From Pirellulales bacterium (GTDB taxonomy: Bacteria; Planctomycetota; Planctomycetia; Pirellulales; JAEUIK01): 64,000 nucleotides of DNA. Below, piece after piece: positions 42,672-52,091 of this stretch. The position numbers and the translations under genes were made by a program. The stretch lies in NCBI GenBank assembly GCA_019694435.1, contig JAIBBZ010000001.1, positions 461,508 through 525,507 of the forward strand. The letters are read 5' to 3'. Numbering within the stretch: position 1 is the stretch's first letter; the number at the start of each line of letters is the position of its first letter. The notes below the pieces were generated by a model. It saw only the letters and a program-made list of their open reading frames with translations. It was not told where the DNA came from and did no database searches.

Positions 42672-45302
<2,631 letters not shown>

Positions 45303-45744: not shown

Positions 45745-46860
45745 TCAACGGTCGCGCGACAGGGGCATCAACAGGTAGCTGTAGCCATCGTCGACCTGGC
45801 ACACAACCGCCGCTTCGGCGTCTTTCAAATCGCAAACGAACGACTTTTCCGGATCGAGGACCTTGAGAAAATCGCTGAAAAATTTGGGGTTCAACGTGAT
45901 CGTGATTTCGGGGCCATCGTAGGCGATCGGCAACTCGACGCGCGACTGGCCCGTCTCGGCCGCCTGCGCGGTGAGCAGCAGCCGTCCGCCGCCGAAGGTG
46001 AAATCGACGCCGCTCGAATCGTCGGCCGCGACGATCGCCGCCTGGCGAATGGCCGCGTGCAACGGACCGACGATCAGGTCGATCTTCTGGCGATTGTTCC
46101 GATCAGGGAACACGTCGCGCCACTTGGGAAATCGGCCTTCGACCAGCCTCGAGAAAATCGTGACCCGCGGCGTCCGCACCAGAACGCCGTTGGGCTTCAC
46201 CGCCAGATGGACTTCGGCGTCGCCGTCTTGCACCGAGCGCTCGACGAGCGACATGGCGCGTTGCGGGATGATTGGGGCCGTCTCGTCGCTGCCGTGACCG
46301 TTCACCGCCTGCGCCGGGCCGCGCATCGTCGCCAAGCGCCGCCCGTCGGTGCCGACGGCAATGATCTCGCCGGGCAGCATTTCGAGCAGCACGCCCCCCA
46401 ACGCATAGCGGCTGCTTTCGTTGTCCGTGGCAAACACCGTTCGCCGCACCAGCTCGCGCAGCAGCCGCGCCGAGACCTCGTGATACTTGGTCTCGTTGAA
46501 GGCCATCACGGCCGGAAACTCTTCGGGATTCTCCGCCGGCAGGCGGAACTCGAAACGCTCGCCACGAACGAGCGTCCCGGTGCCGTCGGTCTCGAGCCGC
46601 AGGGTCTCGTCGTTGCTTTCCCGCAAGATCGAGCCGAACCGCCCGATGGGCAGGATCGCGCTGCCTTCGGCCGCGGCCTCGATGCCCTGCACGTCGACGC
46701 GAATGCCCACCTCCAGATCGGTAGCCAGCAATTCGGCCTTGCCGCCGCGAACGTCGAGCTTGACGTTTTGCAAGATCGGCTTGGGACTACGGCTCGGGAC
46801 CACGGGACTGGCCAACTGAAATGCGGCCAGCAGTTTTTCTCGACTGCAGGTGATTTTCAT
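45745..46860 (-). CDS. dnaN: DNA polymerase III beta sliding clamp
   Basis: Start at ATG 46860 (MKITCSREKLLAAFQLASPVVPSRSPKPILQNVKL). It has a three-domain length (371 aa) and a C-terminal YLLMPL motif. The upstream part of the listed 427-aa ORF is AT-richer and looks non-coding. Confidence 0.9.
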   Translation of the reverse strand: MKITCSREKLLAAFQLASPVVPSRSPKPILQNVKLDVRGGKAELLATDLEVGIRVDVQGIEAAAEGSAILPIGRFGSILRESNDETLRLETDGTGTLVRGERFEFRLPAENPEEFPAVMAFNETKYHEVSARLLRELVRRTVFATDNESSRYALGGVLLEMLPGEIIAVGTDGRRLATMRGPAQAVNGHGSDETAPIIPQRAMSLVERSVQDGDAEVHLAVKPNGVLVRTPRVTIFSRLVEGRFPKWRDVFPDRNNRQKIDLIVGPLHAAIRQAAIVAADDSSGVDFTFGGGRLLLTAQAAETGQSRVELPIAYDGPEITITLNPKFFSDFLKVLDPEKSFVCDLKDAEAAVVCQVDDGYSYLLMPLSRDR

Positions 46861-47248
46861 CGCTTCACTCTTCCGCCTGATGCCGCTGAACCGTGGGCCA
46901 TGCCGTAGGCGTCGACAGGGTTCGTTGCGGGTCTTGCCAAGGGTTTCGTCGTTGGTTGCTCTGTTGCTGCTGTAGTTCTGAATAAGAATGAGTAGTGGTA
47001 GTAATGGCCCGGCCGCGGGTGTCGACAACCGTGTGTCGGCCTGTGAAAAGTCGTTGAGGACCAGGCACTTAGCGCGCCAGATCGGGTGGGGATATCACGT
47101 TGGTGCAAAGTCCACCGGGTTGTCGATCGATGGGTCGCGGACAGCCGTGGTTGCGTGCGACACTCGATCATGCGAGGACCACGAACAGCGCCGGCGACAA
47201 GCGATCGACCACTTTTGCACGTCGCGTAAAAGAACAGGTTCGGTCGGC
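46861..47248. other. Candidate oriC (dnaA-dnaN intergenic spacer)
   Basis: 388-bp non-coding gap. It contains what I judge by eye to be the most AT-rich stretch in the window (46971-47007, tgtagttctgaataagaatgagtagtggtagtaatgg). GC-type DnaA-box-like motifs are TGTCGACAA (47020-47028), TTGTCGATC (47120-47128), CGTCGACAG (46910-46918) and AGTCCACC (47109-47116). Confidence 0.35.
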
Positions 47249-48457
47249 TCATGGACCTGTTCCCGTTGCCTGAAGGGCCGTGCGCAGCTCGCCGTAGGCT
47301 TCGCGGAGCACTGGGTCGGCCTCGACCGCGGCCGCGGCCTGGCGGCAGGCATGCATCACGGTCGTGTGATCGCGACGGCCGAAGTATTGGCCGATGGCCG
47401 CCATCGTGAAGGGTCCTTCCTCGCGTGCCAACAGCATGGCCAATTGCCGCGCGGCGCAGGTCGTGCGGCGCCGGCTCGGGCCGCGCAGATCGGCCAGCGT
47501 CAGGTGGAAACGCCGGGCGCACAGCCGCGCGATTTCCGGCAGTTTGACTTGCCGGCTCGCGCCTTGCGCCGCAAGCAGCTTGTCGATGGCCGTCACGTCG
47601 ATCATGCCGCTGCTGGCAAAGTCGAGCGTCATCAGCACGCCGCGCAGTTCCATGCAGGTTGTCCAGGGACCGGCTGCCAACCGTTCGACCGCCGCCGCCG
47701 ACAGCCGCAGCGCACGACGCTCGGCAAGCTCCCGTACCAGTTCTGCCTTGGCGGCCGGCCCGGGCAGCGCGATCGGCAGCACCAACCCGCCGCCCAGCCT
47801 GCTGCGCAGCCGCGGCGACAGCTCGCGCGAGTTCGCCGGCGATGCGGACGACGTGATGACGATGGCCCGGCGGCGGGCCGAAAGATAGTCGAGAATCTGG
47901 CAGAGCTGCTGTTGGGCTTCGACCTTACCTGCCAATTGTCCGAGGTCATCGAGCACCAACAGCGCCGCGGATTGCAAATCCTTGCGCCAGGCGGCGGTCG
48001 TATTGGTTTCGACCGCATCGGCGTACTGCCGCGCGAAATCGGCACCGCGAATCAAGACGGCACGCGGCGTGCCGGCTCGGCCAACCGGCCTGGCTTCGTC
48101 GCCCGTCGCGCCGAGACCGTGCTGCTGCGCAAACGCGGCGTACACGCCGAACGCAAGATGCGTCTTGCCCACGCCGCTGGGACCGTGCAGCACCAAGGCG
48201 CCGCTCCACCAGGGCTTGCCGCACACGGCGCGCAGGGCAATCAGCAGCCCGTGGTTTTCAGGACCGGCGACAAAATCGTCGAGCGGTTCGTCAGGCCCCG
48301 TGGCAGCGACCCCTGTCGCAACATTTGCAGGAGCAGCAGACGCCGACGGGGCGGCGCTGCGCGGCCACACGGCGCGGCGCCTGAACGGACCGGCCCAAGG
48401 GCCGGCCAGCGGCAGCGAAAACACGCCGGAGTTTGCGATGGCCAAGGGTCCGTCCAT
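47249..48457 (-). CDS. dnaA: Chromosomal replication initiator DnaA (short N-terminus, no recognisable domain I)
   Basis: Walker A is LHGPSGVGKTHL and Walker B is LLVLDDLGQLAGK. The box VII-like segment is LRSRLGGGLVLPIALPG. Domain IV has FGRRDHTTVMHACR. Start is ATG 48457, or alternatively 48520. An upstream in-frame stop caps the ORF at 423 aa. Confidence 0.85.
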   Translation of the reverse strand: MDGPLAIANSGVFSLPLAGPWAGPFRRRAVWPRSAAPSASAAPANVATGVAATGPDEPLDDFVAGPENHGLLIALRAVCGKPWWSGALVLHGPSGVGKTHLAFGVYAAFAQQHGLGATGDEARPVGRAGTPRAVLIRGADFARQYADAVETNTTAAWRKDLQSAALLVLDDLGQLAGKVEAQQQLCQILDYLSARRRAIVITSSASPANSRELSPRLRSRLGGGLVLPIALPGPAAKAELVRELAERRALRLSAAAVERLAAGPWTTCMELRGVLMTLDFASSGMIDVTAIDKLLAAQGASRQVKLPEIARLCARRFHLTLADLRGPSRRRTTCAARQLAMLLAREEGPFTMAAIGQYFGRRDHTTVMHACRQAAAAVEADPVLREAYGELRTALQATGTGP

Positions 48458-48601
48458 TCTCAGCTGACGAGGCCCTCTCACTTGACGAGCCCGTTTGGGC
48501 AGCCGCGGACACCGCGGCAAGCGGCTCCGCAGAGCCCTGCCAAGGGCCGTCCCACAGGCATCGTTCGAGGGTCTGAACCAGACCGCTGAATATACCGAAT
48601 T

Positions 48602-49813: not shown

Positions 49814-50040
49814 CACAACGGCGATTATAGACCCCCGGCCATGCCGGCGGCCTTTGGCGCTGACAGCAAGAGCGCAGCGGAATGCATTACGCAACCCTTT
49901 GCTGGGACAGGCCTTCTGTCCAGTTGTCGAGATGCGATCCGGCCCCGCACGACTGGCGTTGCTTCGTCGTTGTCGCCGGTCTTATCATCTCGCGGCTTGG
50001 CACCGTGCCCGACCGACGATCGGCGGGCAATCCCACGAGA

Positions 50041-50682
50041 ATGCGCAGCGTCCCCATGAGCGGCATGCTCCGATTGCTGGTCATGCTTTTGTGCCTGGTG
50101 GCGTTGCCTGCCTTGGCCATCTGCGGGGCGCCCGTCTCGAAACTGTTCCGGCCGCTGGTGAATTGCGATTGGCAGAAAGAGGCCGAAACTTTCGTCAAGC
50201 GATTCAAGAAAGCCTGGAGCGATGCGTCGGTCGAAGAGCCGATTGAACTCGAGCCGCCTGCAGCCGTTGATCCGCCCTCGACTCTGAAACCCGAGACCAT
50301 CGCGGCGGCGCCTCAACCGGCCACCGGTGAGCTGGCCCTGGCGTCGCACACCGCGGACGCCTTGCCCCCGCCACACGGCGGCCAGGCGCAGCGTGCACAG
50401 GGCAATTCGCCCGGCGCGATCCAGCCTCCGGTGAGTTTGTCGGCCGCCGACGCCGATCCGTTTCAGGCTTTGCAACGGCAATTGCGCGATTGGGGTGCGA
50501 CGTACTACAAGCTGGAGACCTGGGGCGCCGGCGGCGAACTGTATCACTTCCATTGCCGGATGGCGATCGATCGCCAGGGTCTGGCCACGCGCCATTTCGA
50601 GTCGACGACGGCCGACCCCTTGGCGGCCATTCAACAAGTCGTTCGCGAGGTCGAAGCCTGGATCGCAGCCGGCCGGCAGTGA
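50041..50682 (+). CDS. Secreted hypothetical protein
   Basis: ATG 50041 gives the signal-like MRSVPMSGMLRLLVMLLCLVALPALAICG. A Pro/Ala-rich linker is followed by a roughly 70-aa C-terminal domain (DPFQALQRQLRDWGATYYKLETWGAGGELYHFHCRM...). I recognise no family. Confidence 0.5.
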   Translation: MRSVPMSGMLRLLVMLLCLVALPALAICGAPVSKLFRPLVNCDWQKEAETFVKRFKKAWSDASVEEPIELEPPAAVDPPSTLKPETIAAAPQPATGELALASHTADALPPPHGGQAQRAQGNSPGAIQPPVSLSAADADPFQALQRQLRDWGATYYKLETWGAGGELYHFHCRMAIDRQGLATRHFESTTADPLAAIQQVVREVEAWIAAGRQ

Positions 50683-50804: not shown

Positions 50805-51965
50805 ATGCCATCGTCAGGCTTTGCGAATCGTCCTCTTTCCGTGGCGCAAGCTTTGCACAGCGTCGCGTGGCGCTATGCGCAGCCGTTGGCTTTGCGGACC
50901 CAGCGTCCGGGTGGTTTCTGGCTCGCCGGGGCGGCGTCTGCGCCAGCGCCGGCAACCCGCCGCAAGGCGCCGGCGGCGGCTGCCTTGCGCGATGCCCGCA
51001 TGATGCGCCTCGAAGCCGTCTTAATGCTTGCCCAGGAACCCGTTGCGGCGAGGAAATTGGCCCAATTGGCTAGCTTGGCGGACGCGACGGAAGCGCGTAC
51101 ATTAATCGGCCGGCTGAACGAGCTTTACGACCGCACCGCCACGGCGTTTTCGGTGGCCGAAATCGCCGGTGGATACCAGTTGCTGTCGCGAACGGCCTAC
51201 GGACCGTGGCTGCGCCGTTTACACTCCGGCGGCGCCGAAACGCGGTTGTCGACACCGGCCCTGGAGACCTTGGCCGTGGTCGCCTACCGTCAGCCGGTGT
51301 TGAGGGCTGACGTCGAGGCGATTCGCGGAGTACAGTGTGGCGAAATTTTGCGGCAGCTCATGGAGCGTGATCTGGTCCGCATCTGCGGCAGGTCACCCGA
51401 GTTAGGTCGTCCCTTTTTATACGGAACCACCAAGCGATTCCTCCAAATCTTCGGCCTGCGACATCTGGATGAATTGCCCCGCGCCGAATTGTTTCGGGCG
51501 AAGCCCTCGCAGCGGCTCGCCGACGATGTACCCGAGCAAGATCCCACTGCTGAACATGAACTGAAAGAGGAGCCTGCTGTGACCGTCGTATTCGATCGCG
51601 AGATTGCCACCGAGGATGAACTGCGTGAAGACGCCGCGGGCGGTGCCGCGGACCGTCTTCCCGGCGCTCGTCGTCCCCAGCTCGTCGGCGCCAAGCGCGA
51701 AGAGGAAGAAGAGGAAGAGGAAGACGAGGAATGGGAAGATGAGGACGAAGGCGACGAGGAAGACGACGATTGGGATGAAGAAGAGGACGACGAAGAGGAC
51801 GAAGAGGAAGACGAAGAAGACTTCGAAGACGCCGAATGGGAAGAAGTCGACGATGAAGGTGACGAAGAAGAAGGCGACGAAGAGGAAGATGAAGACTGGG
51901 ACGACGACGAAGAGGACGACGACGAGGACTGGGATGACGAAGAGGAAGAAGACGACGCAGAGTAG
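50805..51965 (+). CDS. scpB: Segregation and condensation protein B with an extreme acidic C-terminal tail
   Basis: The ScpB winged-helix core has RLEAVLMLAQEPV, LSTPALETLAVVAYRQPVLRADVEAIRGV and GRPFLYGTTKRFLQIFGL. An alternative start is ATG 51000. The tail is described in the findings. Confidence 0.85.
   Translation: MPSSGFANRPLSVAQALHSVAWRYAQPLALRTQRPGGFWLAGAASAPAPATRRKAPAAAALRDARMMRLEAVLMLAQEPVAARKLAQLASLADATEARTLIGRLNELYDRTATAFSVAEIAGGYQLLSRTAYGPWLRRLHSGGAETRLSTPALETLAVVAYRQPVLRADVEAIRGVQCGEILRQLMERDLVRICGRSPELGRPFLYGTTKRFLQIFGLRHLDELPRAELFRAKPSQRLADDVPEQDPTAEHELKEEPAVTVVFDREIATEDELREDAAGGAADRLPGARRPQLVGAKREEEEEEEEDEEWEDEDEGDEEDDDWDEEEDDEEDEEEDEEDFEDAEWEEVDDEGDEEEGDEEEDEDWDDDEEDDDEDWDDEEEEDDAE
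51699..51962 (+). repeat. Purine-rich GAA/GAG/GAC low-complexity tract encoding the ScpB poly-Asp/Glu tail
   Basis: 264 nt made almost entirely of GAA, GAG and GAC codons with occasional TGG, GGC and TTC. It is visibly distinct from the surrounding GC-rich sequence. Confidence 0.9.
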
Positions 51966-52002
51966 TCTGCCGCTGCTCGCCGTGGCGTGAATCGCCTGTT
52001 CG

Positions 52003-52033
52003 CCCCCCGTGATCTGTTCGCGGGGGTTTCTTT
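52003..52033 (+). terminator. Intrinsic terminator candidate downstream of scpB
   Basis: CCCCCG (52004-52009) pairs with CGGGGG (52021-52026) across an 11-nt loop. TTTCTTT follows at 52027-52033. Confidence 0.45.
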
Positions 52034-52038
52034 GCGCC

Positions 52039-52091
52039 GAGCCAGCGTCGCTGGCTCCCCTCCGTGTAGTCACCGGCCGCGCTGCGCGGCC
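52039..52091. terminator. Two further GC palindromic hairpins in the scpB/hemA convergent gap
   Basis: GAGCCAGC-gtc-GCTGGCTC (52039-52057) and GGCCGCG-ctg-CGCGGCC (52075-52091). Neither has a clear T-tract. They could act on the hemA transcript or bidirectionally. Confidence 0.3.

Follow-up and report, generated by a model that had tools for sequence, protein, structure and literature searches.

The stretch of DNA analysed here, referred to below as the window, comprises 64,000 nucleotides (nt) from a Pirellulales bacterium of the phylum Planctomycetota (assembly GCA_019694435.1, contig JAIBBZ010000001.1, positions 461,508 to 525,507 of the forward strand), and our subject is its scpB gene together with the hyperacidic module encoded at the 3' end of that gene. 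In a preliminary description of the window, the acidic stretch was presented as a tail of ScpB itself. We find instead that it is very probably a fused copy of a separate, unannotated small acidic protein whose gene normally adjoins scpB on its downstream side in Pirellulales, often as a distinct open reading frame (ORF), and which has been fused to and unfused from ScpB repeatedly. In all likelihood the acidic protein is a partner of bacterial condensin that has so far gone undescribed. The main parts of the gene, with lengths in amino acids (aa), are as follows.

50805 to 51965, plus strand: the scpB–acidic-module fusion ORF, 386 aa plus a TAG stop codon, taken from the ORF list.
51006 to 51482, plus strand: the ScpB winged-helix core, aa 68-226, supported by PF04079, TIGR00281 and the first domain in AlphaFold2.
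51483 to 51578, plus strand: a non-conserved linker from the ScpB core to the internal start region, unalignable among homologues and with a predicted local distance difference test (pLDDT) score below 50.
51699 to 51962, plus strand: the hyperacidic run, 88 aa, 86% D/E with 5 W by residue count of the ORF C-terminus.
51822 to 51857, plus strand: the core short linear motif F-E-D-A-E-W-E-E-V-D-D-E, which holds W345, E346, E347 and V348.

The gene at 50805-51965 is a true ScpB. PF04079 matches aa 68-226 with 167.2 bits against a cut-off of 27.4 (E = 2.8e-49, profile positions 2-159 of 160) and TIGR00281 with 115.5 bits against 89.2, and as both scores exceed their cut-offs, the ScpB core reported in the preliminary description is genuine. 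The long-form model NCBIfam NF001106 gave 69.6 bits against a cut-off of 300, with only its profile positions 207-365, the ScpB domain, matching. AlphaFold2 models the first of the winged-helix domains at pLDDT values above 90 and the second (aa 143-230) at values of only 43-66. ScpB is the KITE (kleisin-interacting tandem winged-helix element) subunit of the bacterial Smc-ScpAB condensin, and the core encoded in the window is 47-75% identical to those of other Planctomycetota ScpB proteins. Set against the family models, which span 160 and 186 positions, the 386-aa window protein adds a basic N-terminus of about 65 aa and a 160-aa C-terminal addition, the latter very probably derived from a fused second gene. 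Neither a ScpA nor an SMC gene was found within the 64-kb window.

The N-terminal extension carries the following motif.

50853 to 50876, plus strand: the N-terminal extension motif LHSVAWRY, of the family pattern L[RGH]S[VA]A[LW]RY, common to many Pirellulales ScpB N-termini.

An identical protein is deposited at NCBI (P0001, 321 aa, 100% identity) as “SMC-Scp complex subunit ScpB [Pirellulales bacterium]”, from a metagenome-assembled genome (MAG), and its gene model begins at the ATG at 51000, downstream of 50805. Because homologues share the motif L[RGH]S[VA]A[LW]RY upstream of 51000, the real start is probably the ATG at 50805, giving 386 aa, and the public start was probably mis-called. 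The extension, some 65 aa long in the window protein, is basic, with a net charge of about +10. A version of its motif, L[RG]SVALRY, was considered as a counterpart of the acidic tail, and its distribution among the ScpB proteins does not follow that of the acidic module.

The 88-residue run had been reported exactly, in its letters as in its composition: at 51699-51962 it is built of 45 E, 31 D, 5 W, 1 F, 3 G, 2 A and 1 V, or 86.4% D/E. The accompanying statement that aromatic residues recur every 11-22 residues holds for W, with gaps of 13, 22, 20 and 11, and fails once F is counted, the smallest gap then being 5. At the DNA level, the run was correctly described as a purine-rich tract in GC-rich surroundings (82% purine, and 53% GC vs 67% for the window), whereas its proneness to slippage and triplex formation was overstated, since Tandem Repeats Finder detects degenerate arrays only (62-81% matches), no perfect repeat exceeds 2 x 9 nt (18 nt in all) and no uninterrupted purine run exceeds 26 nt. 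GAA accounts for 69% of the Glu codons in the run (31 GAA, 14 GAG) vs 40% in the other genes of the window (p = 1e-4), and neither AGGAG nor GGAGG occurs inside the run despite its 45 Glu codons; the GAA skew and the missing pentamers may mean that Shine-Dalgarno-like sequences, or G-rich repeats, are avoided inside the run. With regard to structure, AlphaFold2 assigns the tail of the full-length fusion pLDDT values of 40-56 and no secondary structure, and the acidic module is accordingly predicted to be intrinsically disordered. The tract also casts shadow ORFs, one at 51604-51990 in the +1 frame that would specify a hyper-basic K/R/T peptide of 128 aa and one on the antisense strand at 51417-52073 that would specify an F/V-rich peptide of 218 aa; both are unlikely to be genes. 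Among the public calls of homologues, several (P0141, P0159, P0189, P0271 and P0298) end in K/R/T/M-rich strings, which represent frameshift errors in assemblies of the tract.

Comparisons across the phylum, proposed as a check in the preliminary description, established that the tail is conserved in many relatives, which disposes of the concern raised there that it might be absent from them. Among the 120 best matches to the window protein, 66 possess an acidic region of 45-106 aa (median 85.5), which extends to the C-terminus in 61 of the 66, and the exact string WEEV is present in 64 of these 66 tails. When the 51 full-length fused proteins were aligned, W345, E346, E347 and V348 proved invariant in all 51, level with the invariant residues of the ScpB core. 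A profile anchored on WEEV reads [LF]-[ED]-[DE]-[DE]-[ED]-W-E-E-V-D-D; its W lies at a median of about 42 residues from the C-terminus and is usually followed by three more W, the penultimate residue often being W. In the window, the motif F-EDAE-WEEVDD stands 42 aa from the C-terminus and is followed by two further W. In a set of 150 representatives clustered at 50% identity, 31 had a fused hyperacidic tail and 22 of these the exact WEEV, with WIEV, WVEV and WKEV among the variants. W makes up 28% of the non-acidic residues in the 66 tails, ahead of L (14%), V (11%), F (9%) and Y (8%), with K at 5% and N, Q and H at about 1% each. Since N, Q and H, each one mutation away from the D/E codons, are rare, and W and F, two mutations away, are common, the tail is shaped by selection for charge and hydrophobic anchors, not by drift of a GAN repeat. 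Overall, the comparison shows a module under purifying selection for charge and a few hydrophobic anchors.

These same data bear on the possibility that the tail is an artefact of assembly or a recent, functionless slippage expansion of a GAN repeat. The tract is indeed low in complexity and rich in purines, and its frameshifted state in some public homologue calls marks it as error-prone. However, dozens of species with no more than 59-73% identity in the ScpB core have tails of about 85 aa (45-106 aa), WEEV varies neither in its letters nor in its spacing from the C-terminus (median about 42 aa), the DNA repeats are degenerate with a longest perfect repeat of 18 nt, and the codons for W and F lie two mutations from those for D and E and yet dominate the non-acidic positions. 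This explanation is refuted by the conservation of the tail across relatives, and we assign it a negligible probability.

Evidence that the module has an existence apart from ScpB comes from the distribution of acidic ORFs in a sample with one genome per GTDB species, comprising 80 loci that share 47-73% identity with the window in the ScpB core. The module is fused to ScpB in 27 of these loci and encoded by a separate acidic ORF after the scpB stop codon in 24, and 29 show no acidic ORF. The separate ORFs are divided evenly among the reading frames relative to scpB (8/8/8 for frames 0/1/2); they encode about 120-180 aa, lie on the same strand as scpB, and begin 0-240 nt past its stop codon or overlap its end. 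Every non-Pirellulales locus (Gemmatales, Planctomycetales, Phycisphaerae and Scalindua) is in the group without an acidic ORF, as are a few loci from Pirellulales, and contig ends truncate some of these. Long hyperacidic C-termini are correspondingly confined to Pirellulales-type records (Thermoguttaceae, Pirellulaceae, Blastopirellula, Rhodopirellula, Rubripirellula), and the ScpB proteins of the other Planctomycetota named above end 3-50 aa beyond the core in non-acidic sequence, in keeping with the earlier statement that a typical ScpB has no such tail. Proteome-wide acidic bias was entertained as a source of the tail and rejected: when 816 kb, namely the window and the 80 related loci, were scanned in six frames, ORFs whose D/E content reached 70% over 30 aa were found at scpB only.

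A second, independent sample was drawn from metagenomes with a DNA pattern for [DE][DE]WEEV[DE][DE], which gave 70 matches within hyperacidic ORFs. A ScpB core lay on the same stretch in 51 of the 70, and among the 49 of these that could be analysed the module was separate in 41 and fused in 8. The remaining 19 matches were mostly at contig ends; true exceptions are few. The pattern also picked out a WEEV acidic segment N-terminal to a leucine-rich-repeat-like C-terminus (L099, L100 and L123), a tail of mixed acidic and basic blocks with WEEV (L085) and a small Cys-rich protein with WEEV (L160); the WEEV segments of these loci, and those of two further loci considered below (L195 and L115), may be coincidental, having been selected by the motif pattern.

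Public gene callers independently recovered the same arrangement, with a ScpB gene (186 or 224 aa, PF04079) followed after a gap of 120-140 nt by a same-strand acidic gene of 182 or 158 aa that has no Pfam match, beyond which lies a convergent gene. The stand-alone proteins are annotated as “hypothetical protein” (Planctomycetota), and scans of three module sequences against Pfam and NCBIfam, with E values up to 1, returned no family. When a whole stand-alone acidic protein served as the query for homologues, none of 8000 candidates scored, an outcome we attribute to the low-complexity acidic composition of the query; a query that included the non-acidic N-terminal motif recovered stand-alone homologues. 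Individual assignments to the fused or separate class could be wrong, as most genomes are MAGs and the tract provokes frameshifted calls in some public assemblies; the overall pattern is nevertheless robust, because the even frame split, the conserved starts described next and the independent gene calls agree.

The stand-alone ORFs begin with GTG, or rarely ATG, placed 5-9 nt after AAGGAG or GAGGAG and typically about 25-65 codons before the acidic run. Several public calls of stand-alone homologues begin at the equivalent codon, as MTIA... or VTIA.... The same signals recur inside the fused genes, where the linker corresponds to the C-terminal end of ScpB plus the intergenic DNA of unfused relatives. 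In the window these elements are as follows.

51563 to 51572, plus strand: an internal Shine-Dalgarno-like sequence, GAAAGAGGAG, with GAGGAG at 51567-51572, 6 nt upstream of an in-frame GTG.
51579 to 51581, plus strand: the in-frame GTG, putatively the start codon of the ancestral stand-alone acidic gene, 40 codons before the acidic run.
51579 to 51965, plus strand: the acidic module as a putative independent product of 128 aa, with a 40-aa neutral N-terminal part and the 88-aa acidic run.

A Shine-Dalgarno sequence and an in-frame start were kept in 23/23 fused genes read, the window gene included (19 GTG, 4 ATG), against a background of 0.1-0.3 start-like sites per 100 codons. At the internal start, 19/19 Val codons are GTG, compared with 40% in the cores of the same genes, for a probability of about 3e-8 as computed from codon usage alone. 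In the metagenome sample, 45 of the 49 loci display the Shine-Dalgarno sequence and start (41 GTG, 4 ATG). Among the 51 aligned fused proteins, the sole conserved linker positions are E256 and V259, each at 90% or more, and these two residues are the start element as seen in the protein. As the internal Shine-Dalgarno sequence and GTG are retained in fused genes, a free 128-aa product beside the 386-aa fusion is plausible. The 386-aa fusion is thus the probable product of the window gene, which may in addition give rise to an unattached acidic protein of 128 aa from the putative start at 51579.

Read from its start codon, the module divides into five parts. These are a short alternating hydrophobic N-terminus, M-[KST]-[TVMI]-x-[LIVF]; a helix motif, [DE]VFSW[SN]ELPELLAAEDLF[DE], near-invariant in a large stand-alone clade; a variable spacer; a D/E run of about 85-100 aa punctuated by F, Y and L; and the invariant [LF]xxxxWEEV[DE]D, from which W-acidic repeats continue to the C-terminus. 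The neutral portion ahead of the D/E run measures about 30-60 aa. In AlphaFold2 models of a stand-alone member, only residues 44-56 (the 13-residue WSEMPELLAAEDLF segment) are helical, at a pLDDT of about 71, and the rest is disordered. In crown and fused forms the N-terminal helix motif is degenerate (PEE[LF]L; in the window VFDREIATEDEL), and the window protein does not match VFSW[SN]ELPELLAAEDLF, having MTVVFDREIATEDELRED at this position with only VF...EDEL remnants. Compared with the stand-alone family (P0270, P0319, and ORFs in L024, L027, L031 and L052), the window module thus shares the Shine-Dalgarno sequence and GTG, the neutral N-terminus, the D/E run, [LF]xxxxWEEV[DE]D, the W-acidic repeats and the position 3' of the ScpB core on the same strand; it differs in its covalent joining to ScpB and in the degeneracy of its N-terminal helix motif.

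The history of these states was traced on a neighbour-joining tree of ScpB cores, a tree that, resting on 160-aa sequences, is short and imprecise. All tail-bearing proteins fall into one clade of this tree, through which are scattered Pirellulales ScpB proteins that lack a tail but whose genes are directly followed by the separate acidic ORF, and Fitch parsimony counts at least 10 switches between the fused and unfused states. The basal module-bearing lineages all carry separate ORFs (L021, L036, L044, L050, L065, L041, L048, L051, L060, L061 and L074). Together, these features point to a module that arose once in Pirellulales as a separate gene beside scpB and was then fused repeatedly; in-frame joining to ScpB would have followed each time the intervening stop codon or frame offset was lost. 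The repeated fusions also show that covalent attachment to ScpB was tolerated or favoured many times. The converse history would be that the tail evolved in place as a lineage-specific C-terminal extension of ScpB and that the downstream ORFs are secondary gene fissions. Fused forms are indeed frequent among the closest relatives of the window protein (66 of the 120 best homologues, 27 of the 80 species loci), and the direction of change, fusion or fission, depends on the 160-aa tree. We consider this history very unlikely, given that the basal lineages carry separate ORFs, that the current tree suggests fused forms in derived positions only, that separate genes prevail in the metagenome sample (41/49) and that the retained Shine-Dalgarno sequence and GTG would be purposeless in a pure tail. 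Even if the fused state were ancestral, the module would work as an autonomous protein in many species. Elsewhere in the phylum, Phycisphaerae loci (L075, L077, L080 and others) have moderately acidic N-terminal extensions of ScpB, with net charges of -6 to -27. Because these extensions occur without the C-terminal module, acidic ScpB appendages may have arisen more than once in Planctomycetota.

The surroundings of scpB were searched for other genes that might accompany the module. In the window, scpB is situated 2.3 kb from dnaA (47249-48520, minus strand), with dnaN (45748-47094) and gyrB (42675-45302) beyond it, both also on the minus strand; with dnaA, dnaN and gyrB nearby, the replication origin is probably not far from scpB. 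More than 20 Pirellulales loci preserve the gene order dnaN, dnaA, cysteine desulfurase, unknown gene, scpB. As a means of finding a partner, conserved neighbours were uninformative, as dnaN, dnaA, the cysteine desulfurase gene, the unknown gene and a ccsA-like gene are syntenic in fused and separate loci alike. In a distant clade, moreover, adjacency of scpB and the module is kept amid different neighbours (SurA-like and Ham1-like in place of dnaA). Taken together, the syntenic genes shared by both states and the distant clade that differs indicate that no neighbour tracks the module except scpB.

Directly upstream of scpB, an ORF of 266 aa (49882-50682, plus strand) encodes a protein with a signal-peptide- or membrane-anchor-like N-terminus and a P/A-rich linker, for which Pfam returned no match. 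Its C-terminal domain of about 75 aa is conserved upstream of scpB in 17 loci, and the same domain occurs upstream of scpB in the distant clade (L201, 4544-5065; 29% identity, E = 2e-7), which suggests that the unknown gene, scpB and the acidic gene form a conserved three-gene unit. Downstream of scpB, no coding element follows the module within the transcription unit, the next gene being convergent in relatives, and the following feature lies beyond the stop codon.

52004 to 52036, plus strand: a terminator-like hairpin (52004-52026) plus T-tract, about 40 nt after the stop codon.

What, then, might the acidic protein do? Its gene adjoins scpB across differing synteny and has been fused to it many times, and fused proteins tend to work together; from this we infer that the protein operates within Smc-ScpAB, either together with ScpB or beside it. 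The best explanation overall, and one to which we give about an even chance of being correct, is that the tail is a fused, conserved small acidic protein that serves as an accessory factor of Smc-ScpAB. The mechanism by which it might do so can be sketched as follows. The module would be a disordered polyanion held at the ScpB/kleisin end of the Smc-ScpAB ring, through covalent fusion in the window gene and through a docking helix or motif elsewhere. In this position it could compete in the manner of DNA for basic surfaces, such as an unusually basic ScpB core or N-terminus or the DNA sites of the SMC head and hinge; alternatively, the target surfaces could be those of basic nucleoid proteins met by the complex. 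The effect would be to gate access of DNA to the basic surfaces of the complex or to capture basic nucleoid proteins, with WEEV, the W residues and the N-terminal helix acting as specific hydrophobic docking anchors. We regard this mechanism of polyanionic competition as tentative, its chances falling somewhat short of even. A more elaborate proposal casts the module as an extra, clade-specific condensin subunit of Pirellulales, free or fused to ScpB, that would function as a tethered DNA mimic, gate the Smc-ScpAB clamp or strip nucleoid proteins ahead of it, use WEEV as its docking site, and exist in both tethered and free forms where the genes are fused. In this full form the proposal is possible, if doubtful.

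The preliminary description had suggested a DNA mimic, a competitor on SMC/ScpA or a binder of basic nucleoid proteins; such a role would be compatible with all of the present findings and has indirect support in the predicted disorder, the polyanionic composition, the conserved hydrophobic anchors and the charge of the ScpB core. The net charge of the core is +6.3 +/- 2.0 in loci with the module vs +2.8 +/- 3.4 in those without, and it is 0 and +1 in two crown lineages from which the module has been lost, a correlation that is confounded by phylogeny. Other considerations weigh against a role as accessory factor of Smc-ScpAB or against the mechanism proposed for it. Operon linkage and fusion constitute association, not mechanism, and the partner of the module is proposed from gene order and composition. 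Two loci carry WEEV acidic ORFs that do not adjoin scpB (L195, where the ORF follows a ketoacyl-synthase-like gene, and L115), and two Pirellulales loci (L043 and L045) are devoid of the module, so that the association with scpB is strong and not absolute. The net charge of about -76 per chain is far beyond what would neutralise ScpB, and a simple model of autoinhibition in cis is therefore incomplete. Finally, the AlphaFold2 model of the full-length monomer displays no confident docking of the tail or of WEEV onto the ScpB core.

Several of these properties would equally fit a non-specific physical device, for example an entropic bristle or solubility tag, an electrostatic repeller of DNA on the ScpB side of the ring, or a buffer of Mg2+ or polyamines. 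Such a device would accord with the extreme net charge of about -76, with the predicted disorder, with the wide variation in length and exact sequence among species, and with the fact that no docking is predicted. The features that set the module apart from a mere polyelectrolyte are, however, hallmarks of specific binding, namely the invariant W-E-E-V with its preceding hydrophobic position and the systematic punctuation by W, to which are added the frequent penultimate W at the C-terminus and the near-invariant 18-residue VFSW[SN]ELPELLAAEDLF helix motif of the stand-alone clade. We consequently view a purely physical role as improbable.

A role unrelated to Smc-ScpAB must also be weighed, in which the acidic protein would be a chaperone of basic ribosomal or nucleoid proteins, or of replication proteins encoded near the origin, that is merely co-transcribed with scpB and whose fusions to ScpB are neutral. 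The distance of 2.3 kb that separates scpB from the dnaA/dnaN/gyrB cluster in this clade would suit such a role, as would the rare module copies away from scpB, and fusion would need only the loss of a stop codon in a non-conserved spacer. Yet the adjacency of scpB and the module persists under entirely different synteny, and fusions arose or persisted in many lineages when they should have been selected against if some 76 negative charges placed on ScpB harmed condensin. In addition, the module was not found fused to other protein families in the sampled data. This alternative is in our estimation an unlikely one, and the reading we prefer is still that of an accessory factor of Smc-ScpAB.

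In the literature searched on ScpB, on Planctomycetes and Rhodopirellula, and on Smc-ScpAB, we found no description of an acidic ScpB tail or an scpB-linked acidic protein, nor of any polyanionic, disordered accessory factor of Smc-ScpAB. What appears to be new here is a Smc-ScpAB with an extra, clade-specific polyanionic module. The finding touches on the open questions of how SMC complexes discriminate among DNA substrates, avoid unproductive binding and cope with DNA-bound proteins, and a protein family whose genes stay beside scpB throughout a whole bacterial order, and have been joined to it time and again, constitutes a ready candidate regulator, for which the WEEV motif, the W repeats, the N-terminal helix and the fused vs free state offer mutational handles. 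It also bears on annotation: hundreds of “hypothetical proteins” and “long ScpB” entries would represent one module, and the acidic tract is a cause of frameshifted gene calls in public assemblies. Were the idea of a tethered DNA mimic true, the module would be a bacterial counterpart, mounted on an SMC machine, of prothymosin-alpha and of the acidic tails of histone chaperones.

A number of known systems resemble the window gene in one respect or another. At the level of gene structure, these are genes with in-frame internal starts. Escherichia coli infB (IF2 alpha and beta), clpB and cheA (long and short forms) each give two products through such a start, and they likewise have a conserved Shine-Dalgarno sequence and start within a longer ORF. 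In the present case the putative internal start would have belonged to a gene that was once separate, and it would be either a leftover of that gene or still in use.

At the level of the motif, two known patterns come to mind. The LC3-interacting region/Atg8-interacting motif (LIR/AIM) has the form [W/F/Y]xx[L/I/V], as in WEEL of Atg19, and the C-terminal (I/M)EEVD of Hsp70 and Hsp90 binds the clamps formed by tetratricopeptide repeats. W-E-E-V-D fits both patterns letter for letter and does so in an acidic context. The EEVD motif acts at a free C-terminus, whereas the final D of WEEVD in the window protein lies 39 residues from the end, and Atg8 is not expected in bacteria. We take the likeness as a lead to the kind of pocket that might be involved, not as membership in either family.

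In composition, the module belongs with the polyanionic, disordered regulators. These include prothymosin-alpha with its partner histone H1, the acidic tail of HMGB1, and the acidic tails of FACT and Nap1 with their aromatic anchors, as well as region 1.1 of sigma-70 and the bacterial DNA mimics that bind HU. Long D/E runs, disorder and sparse aromatic or hydrophobic anchors are common to all and form a signature of polyanions that compete with DNA, and some of these regulators are intramolecular tails while others are free proteins, both states being represented here. There is no sequence homology; the likeness is one of composition and logic, and with 86% D/E over 88 residues the module stands at the extreme end of the range.

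As regards function, there is a parallel in the MukBEF complex. The acyl carrier protein AcpP is a small, acidic protein that binds the coiled coil of MukB. It is a folded four-helix protein whose primary job is lipid synthesis, whereas the module described here is predicted to be disordered, is far more acidic and non-homologous, and appears dedicated to the scpB locus. The parallel is thus a functional analogy only. Acyl carrier protein binds MukB and promotes the action of MukBEF (PMC8602292), and it thereby sets a precedent for small proteins that assist bacterial SMC complexes.

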